From Chiloscyllium plagiosum (lineage: Eukaryota): a stretch of 64,000 nucleotides of DNA. The notes under the pieces were generated by a model. The model was not told the origin of the DNA. It did no database searches and saw only the letters and a list, made by a program, of their open reading frames with translations. Position 1 is the first letter of the stretch, and the number at the start of each line of letters is the position of its first letter. The DNA lies in NCBI RefSeq assembly GCF_004010195.1, contig NC_057719.1, forward strand, positions 17,176,893 through 17,240,892. The letters run 5' to 3'. Position numbers and translations under genes: made by a program. Of the stretch, positions 63,419 to 64,000 are shown one piece after another.

Positions 63419-63728
63419 ATATAGTCAAATTCACTGAATCATAGCCAATGTTTCAGACATCTCGATTGCCATCAATGATTCTTTCCTATACCACTAGCAG
63501 GATATACCCACCTGAGATGGTGCCACATCGTATAGATTTCAACCCTGGCAGTCTTCAACATTGATTCTGGGACCCAGGAACTCTCATGGCATCAGGCCAC
63601 ATATAGTCAAGGAATAACCTCGCTGATTATCACCTACTACTCTCTCTCAGTTGATGATTCACCACTCAAATGTTGGACACCACTTGGAAGAAGCACTGAG
63701 GGTAGCAATGGCCTGGAATATATTCCAG

Positions 63729-63968
63729 GTGGAGGTGGGTACTGCAGATGCTGGAGATTAGAGTCAAGATTAGAGTGGTGCTGGAAAGGCACAGCAGGTC
63801 AGGCAGCATCTGAGGAGCAGGAAAATTGATGTTTCGGGCAAAAGCCCTTCATCAGGAATCTGAATCACCAGTCCTGATGAAGGGCTTTTGCTGAAACATC
63901 GATTTTCCTGCTCCTCAGATGCTGCCTGACCTGCTGTGCTTTTCCAGCACCACTCTAATCTTGATCCA
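63729..63968. mobile_element. PLE family-1 palindromic mini-element with a hammerhead core on each strand
   Basis: Arms 63764-63857 and 63872-63964 (about 4 differences), 14-nt loop, 35-nt unpaired tail. 13-bp TSD gaatatattccag at 63716-63728 and 63969-63981. Confidence 0.92.
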
Positions 63969-64000
63969 GAATATATTCCAGTTAAAGGTTATCAATAACA

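Follow-up and report, generated by a model that had tools for sequence, protein, structure and literature searches.

The closest described relatives of the insertions considered here are Penelope/Poseidon EN+ Penelope-like elements (PLEs). Units of these elements include an inverted truncated copy and a tail of 30 to 40 bp that is often present at one end only, and how the tandem and inverted structures of PLEs arise is described in the same source as undefined (PMC8557442). For the Anolis Poseidon element PAc, two RT start sites bound the tail, both strands of the target are cut and extended, and a dimer is predicted (PMC11167929). In Schistosoma, dual hammerhead motifs lie on opposite strands at a distance of 100 to 700 bp (PMC4209133). 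Insertions composed of a tail plus an inverted copy, as well as opposite-strand hammerhead pairs, are already described.

The window analyzed here is a 64,000-nucleotide stretch of shark DNA, and its focal feature is a palindrome that lies close to the end of this stretch. An earlier note on the same DNA had proposed that this palindrome and four others might represent a non-autonomous, hammerhead-bearing mobile class. We find that the focal element is real but is an ordinary PLE by-product, and that its reading as a new mobile class is not supported.

The window insertions resemble EN+ PLE units (PMC8557442), including Pen2a_Av (PMC3846280), in that an inverted 5′-truncated copy is arranged head-to-head, a tail of 30 to 40 bp is present at one end, the TSD is similar in length, and the terminal repeat carries a hammerhead. 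They differ from these units in having neither an ORF nor a direct second repeat between the arms, in being only 94 to 240 bp long, and in their density of six in 64 kb. The motifs share with metazoan PLE minimal hammerheads the CUGANGA sequence, an extra base before stem II, GAAA, a weak stem I, and a minimal stem III, whereas the two focal cores have only about 20 nt between them, are both without the 15.2-16.2 pair and its palindrome, and would be sequestered according to the predicted fold (PMC4209133). Non-LTR retrozymes are likewise non-coding, hammerhead-bearing, derived from PLE terminal repeats, and present in a chondrichthyan, but they form head-to-tail tandem arrays in which every unit bears a type I hammerhead (10.64898/2026.07.22.740005), whereas the stubs described here are head-to-head. 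No head-to-tail tandem hammerhead units were found in the window. Our literature search, which was thin for subscription journals and was made without Repbase or Dfam, turned up neither a description of palindromic non-autonomous PLE stubs nor one of twin priming by PLEs.

Anatomy and PLE identity of the focal insertion

The focal insertion comprises 240 bp between its two TSD copies. An inverted repeat of about 93 bp had been claimed at this locus, and we observe 94-bp arms at 63764–63857 and 63872–63964 in which 90 of 94 positions are paired. The predicted RNA fold has a free energy of −201.7 kcal/mol (z −23.5), and none of 200 shuffled sequences was equally stable. The long left arm (63764..63857, minus strand) is PLE terminal-repeat sequence in its minus-strand reading, and its 3′ end is the 35-nt unpaired tail of the earlier note, which maps to 63729..63763 (minus strand) with its terminus at +127 from the first base of the hammerhead core. 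The short right arm (63872..63964, plus strand) has its outer end at +92. Between the arms lies the head-to-head junction (63858..63871, no strand assigned), which includes about 12 nt of filler that is absent from sibling copies in the window.

The perfect 13-bp TSD also proved genuine, with 63716..63728 identical to 63969..63981 (both plus strand) at 13 of 13 positions, a match equalled by none of 147 random placements. The left copy is located within a 16-bp palindromic, AT-centered target (63713-63728), and four extra nucleotides (63965-63968) immediately precede the right copy, beyond which the window holds 19 nt. The left junction is seen independently in a contig from run X5 of a second study, which covers 63400-63754 with 0 differences. 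The center is spanned by none of the contigs listed from the sequencing runs.

The proposed PLE origin is supported by a single TSD-flanked insertion that carries both a sibling terminal repeat and an RT fragment. This 5′-truncated insertion (6925..8391, minus strand; TSD 14/14) consists of the RT fragment (7994-8383), identified by direct translation, a 907-N gap, and a terminal repeat (6925-7086) that has an intact hammerhead core and ends at the short site (6925). The terminal repeat is identical to the two focal arms at 79 of 92 and 77 of 90 positions (86%). The RT fragment shares 95% identity with a protein of Chiloscyllium punctatum and 88% identity with P0005, a protein that has an RT plus a GIY-YIG match at its C-terminus. 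A GIY-YIG match was found in five of eight scanned relatives, two of them above the Pfam cutoff, and the position expected for this domain in the window copy falls inside the 907-N gap. A PLE-type RT is linked to the terminal repeat in this manner via a sibling subfamily and across the N gap. As in EN+ PLEs, an inverted 5′-truncated copy is accompanied by a TSD, and tails of 30 to 39 nt occur once per two-ended insertion. Because of the RT, the shared TSD-flanked insertion, the repeat identity, and the GIY-YIG relatives, the stubs appear to be the ends of an endonuclease-type PLE in a shark-type genome, with the link passing through the sibling subfamily and across the gap.

Other searches for PLE protein sequence were negative. 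No PLE domains were detected in the 17 of 23 long ORFs that were scanned, six ORFs overlapping the N gap having been excluded, and a search of solved structures with the RT fragment gave no match. A short open frame in the arms was considered as the start of an ORF and was dropped after no homologue was found. A 22-nt family motif produced five matches in metagenomes, each limited to the motif with no similarity beyond it, and no viral matches. This PLE RT sequence is also contained in three proteins from rays or skates that carry the names of host-gene isoforms (P0014, P0022, and P0024), which probably reflects gene-model read-in and possibly exonization. The repeat itself is very abundant, with 95,357, 97,267, and 99,748 contig pieces aligned in three DNA runs from two organisms. 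The focal object itself matters little, because it is one among very many PLE stubs.

Hammerhead cores and RNA reads

A CUGAUGA...GAAAC core had been reported on each strand of the focal palindrome, and both are present. The left-arm core (63828-63855) has an intact stem II, whereas the right-arm core (63874-63900) carries a 1-nt deletion in this stem, and each has an A at position 16.2. The parts of a minimal type I hammerhead (CUGANGA, the extra base, stem II, and GAAA) exist on both arms. Stem II forms in the isolated left motif (P 0.999), whereas on the right arm it does not close in its canonical register. Positions 15.2-16.2 are C/A on both focal arms, with C/G observed in 1 of 14 arms examined (6925), and the complementary palindromic arrangement at these positions that would favor dimer formation is absent from the focal arms. 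The 15.2-16.2 pair and a palindrome are features of dimer-type minimal hammerheads, and a single minimal motif gave no cleavage (PMC4209133). Among the 10 arms of five palindromes, CUGANGA is kept in five, and CUGANGA together with GAAA in three.

The related claim that transcription in either direction yields a hammerhead stands for the letters of the sequence only, because in the folded whole RNA pairing of the core is predicted (mean probability unpaired 0.001). With transcription from either side, the antisense arm is made first. The predicted fold buries both focal cores within the hairpin, they are predicted to be inactive, and the motifs are best read as passengers, a view of their activity that is drawn from sequence and folding. 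In the study of PAc, hammerhead cleavage was found only with protein and was dispensable for insertion in vitro (PMC11167929). A scan with Rfam at gathering score gave no matches over the window. With E values up to 10, the focal region yielded 18 sub-threshold matches, mostly to generic miRNA hairpins and none to a hammerhead model. The intact sibling at 6925 gave no hammerhead match either, so Rfam appears blind to this minimal motif.

RNA run X21, of which about 2% was read, provided 2,542 aligned reads, 99% of which run on into other sequence. No reads fell on the focal flank (63400-63651), and no sharp read starts or ends were observed. Because these reads stem from many copies, they permit no inference on expression of the focal locus. 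Hairpins of this kind, if transcribed, may be ADAR or Dicer substrates. The A-to-I editing that had been suggested for the arms was not in excess: A>G plus T>C accounted for 71 of 234 places in RNA versus 39 of 150, 35 of 148, and 35 of 157 in DNA runs, and changes at A/T did not differ between the RNA run and run X1 (p = 0.75). At position 63929, A>G reaches 9% and 26% in the RNA run versus 2 to 5% in the DNA runs, which represents editing or an expressed subfamily variant and is not separable from subfamily variation.

Sibling insertions and their junctions

An unfiltered inverted-repeat search of the window returned the same five palindromes as the earlier note, which had described one design at all of them. 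The palindromes at 29710, 31339, 34448, and 51728 all exist, each with one tailed and one short arm, and their derivation from three families (A, B, and C) is confirmed by sequence. The rest of the shared design fared less well, since hammerhead cores on both arms are confined to the focal copy and, among the other four, the TSDs are good at 29710 and 51728 only, that at 31339 being weak and that at 34448 unsupported.

Two of these palindromes belong to family A. The first (29710..29878, no strand assigned) has its short arm on the left and its tailed arm on the right, carries a complete core on neither, and is flanked by a 15-bp TSD with two mismatches. The second (51728..51917, no strand assigned), from another subfamily, has its tailed arm on the left and a hammerhead core only on the right arm, which has a 14-nt internal deletion; its 15-bp TSD also has two mismatches. 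The family B palindrome (31339..31551, no strand assigned) has its tailed arm on the left, a decayed right-arm core, and a weak 10-bp TSD, and the family C palindrome (34448..34662, no strand assigned) has its tailed arm on the right and a candidate TSD of 9/12 that is not significant. In a random-placement test, the TSD score was reached by 1 of 147 placements for 29710 and 2 of 149 for 51728, versus 13 of 147 for 31339 and 85 of 142 for 34448. The TSDs of the latter two are statistically unestablished because random placements often score as well. A sixth palindrome overlooked in the earlier note is a 94-bp family C miniature (25362..25455, no strand assigned; TSD 11/12), with its tailed arm on the right and a 16-nt, tandemly doubled inverted arm from the short site, and without a hammerhead.

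The window holds additional PLE sequences. A one-ended, 5′-truncated copy (9301..9464, minus strand; TSD 13/13) has the tail but not the inverted arm, and for the copies at 32129, 33193, and 10014 a TSD was sought and none was convincing. A short remnant at 24720-24825 resembles the C-terminus of a PLE protein (tblastn E 0.001) and the beginning of the corresponding terminal repeat, and it has no hammerhead after it. Other repeats include inverted repeats of about 140 bp, about 97% identical, that surround a 1-kb interior with a LINE-like frame remnant (52294-53606) and may represent either the inverted tail of a retroelement or a DNA transposon. They also include a degenerate 64-bp inverted pair (55196-55258 and 55863-55924; 80%), separated by about 600 bp, and a weak Exo_endo_phos match (45842-46207, minus strand) that is likely a LINE endonuclease remnant.

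Palindromic AT-centered targets were found at 63713-63728 (16 bp) and 6912-6923 (12 bp), corresponding to two of three perfect TSDs and two of six sites overall. Palindromes of these kinds occur in 0.05% and 0.8% of random 23-mers, respectively. They could reflect a dimeric endonuclease or chance, and two of six is too few for a rule.

Two origins had been offered for the palindromes, namely repeated template switching at the ribozyme or a hairpin family mobilized as a unit. None of the six centers in the window is shared, a diversity that supports formation anew at each insertion. The propagated-unit alternative finds no support in this evidence, nor in the read joints on the focal stretch (three DNA runs and one RNA run), where none of the 15 listed of 829 was dominant. 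The placement of the switch "at the ribozyme" is correct only in part. Counted from the first base of the core, the arms reach 5′ limits of −9/−2 in the focal palindrome and +1/+29, +9/−1, +15/−3, +1/−14, and +66/+57 in the others. Nine of these 12 limits fall within −14 to +15, whereas a single arm begins at the cut site, which is predicted at about +28. Because most arms stop near the core and only one at the cut site, the template 5′ end or a structural stall is a better explanation than ribozyme cleavage.

The summed depth over the focal loop amounts to 0.04 to 0.08% of arm depth, and many different indels cross the center. A few joints are deep in single contigs (X9 63846-63918, 764.5; X9 63786-63880, 372; X1 63817-63919, 342), or 25 to 50 times the unique-flank depth of 13 to 15, and some recur in 7 to 11 contigs per run. 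Depth is not equivalent to copy number, and many joint positions track mismatches peculiar to the focal copy and are possibly artefacts of the alignment. The deep single-contig joints are candidates for a multi-copy center, and duplicated loci or small propagated subfamilies may be behind a few of them. The different centers leave room for masters elsewhere, because the sample is small (seven two-ended insertions from three families and several subfamilies). We consider the focal element very probably a de novo PLE by-product, and its hairpin is likely to be a dead end and not a master.

End geometry and origin of the inverted arms

The outer ends of the insertions fall into two classes. In families A and B these lie at +126 to +129 and at +85 to +96, the short-arm end of 51728 being corrected for its 14-nt deletion, and in family C they lie at +119 and at +80 to +83. 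All seven two-ended insertions have one tailed end and one end about 35 nt short of the tailed site (p = 0.008 if ends are independent at 1:1). This count leaves out 32129, 33193, and 10014, whose TSDs were not convincing, and the one-ended copy at 9301. The insertion at 6925-8391 has a 1.46-kb main arm without a tail and, at its far end (8382-8391), about 10 nt of the tail terminus in inverted orientation, which matches at 9 of 10 positions, a score equalled at 25 of 126,132 window positions.

In three palindromes (29710, 51728, and 31339), the short arm extends further 5′ than the tailed arm. Together with 6925-8391, four of the seven insertions are non-nested, wherein each arm has sequence absent from the other. 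Because each holds sequence that the other lacks, neither arm is a simple copy of the other, and two priming events on RNA are favored. We therefore consider it somewhat more probable than even (roughly 0.55) that the focal unit, a head-to-head pair of 5′-truncated terminal-repeat copies, arose in a single insertion event with priming from both nicked strands of the target.

In LINE-1 twin priming, both target strands prime and give rise to an inversion inside one TSD, and LINE-1 inversions are non-overlapping. The shark arms differ from these products in that they overlap and end at fixed sites. By the two-primer route, the PLE endonuclease would nick both strands 12 to 15 nt apart at an AT-rich site, generating the TSD. 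The distal RT start site would be used by one 3′ end, giving the tailed arm (+119 to +129), and the proximal start site (+80 to +96) by the other. Synthesis of either cDNA would usually end close to the hammerhead's 5′ edge, and the two cDNAs would be joined via a few bases of microhomology or filler.

A more specific version, in which a dimeric RT-endonuclease starts one cDNA per target strand and one per RT start site, is tentative, and we would not claim even odds for it. The scheme resembles PAc in its two RT start sites bounding the tail, in the cutting and extension of both strands, and in its AT-rich target, although the accessible text of that study does not tie the two start sites to the two ends of inverted insertions (PMC11167929). 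In that in vitro system the top and bottom strands did not differ in their start site, so it does not show a rule of one site per strand (PMC11167929).

Alternatively, a single cDNA or antisense RNA might snap back near the hammerhead, copy itself, and stop about 35 nt short, much as head-to-head repeats in rotifer PLEs have been ascribed to self-priming on an antisense template (PMC3846280). Such folding back requires nested arms, and the three nested palindromes among the six (focal, 34448, and 25362) fit it equally well. The location of nine of the 12 arm stops close to the structured hammerhead is in accord with this route, as are the mirrored CpG-type variants common to both focal arms (63811/63917 and 63830/63898), although such variants are frequent in the family generally. 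The insertions at 29710, 51728, 31339, and 6925-8391 are not nested, however, and could be accommodated if later deletions at hairpin tips produced their non-nested arms. Furthermore, the short end looks like a start rather than a stop, because the same fixed site is used by the non-palindromic main arm at 6925. On balance, self-copying is an unlikely origin for the focal unit.

Two further routes would begin with a longer or pre-existing palindrome. An inverted repeat joined to a repeat-ORF-repeat unit might lose its ORF by direct-repeat recombination with the TSD unchanged, and the parent form is known from Pen2a, which has two direct pLTRs plus an inverted pLTR, a 9-bp TSD, and a 31-bp tail (PMC3846280). 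However, no such long parent exists in the window, where the sole RT-bearing copy has only the 10-nt inverted piece. Direct repeats of about 100 bp would be short recombination substrates, and an inverted junction would still have to be made de novo, which renders this collapse improbable. Read-through RNA of the palindrome, with the tail at its 3′ end, might also be mobilized whole in trans by PLE protein and spread fixed centers. This is structurally possible on a minus-strand transcript, integration in trans was supported in rotifers by the pLTR sequence on its own (PMC3846280), and a few deep or recurrent joints occur among the 15 of 829 listed. Against it are the six different centers of the six palindromes, the loop depth below 0.1% of arm depth with its varied indels, and the prediction that the whole RNA forms a 94-bp duplex in which the motif is hidden, and we regard this route as very improbable.

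The value of the stubs lies in the evidence they provide on the undefined origin of PLE inverted structures, for which their end geometry offers a concrete rule that is testable both in assemblies and in the existing in vitro system. Moreover, if the stubs are transcribed, they would supply sharks with a large amount of double-stranded RNA that is paired near-perfectly. If paired priming is true, then one rule would cover the one-sided tail, the head-to-head repeats, and the inverted mini-tails of the long copies. A very large natural record for testing this rule would then be available in shark genomes.
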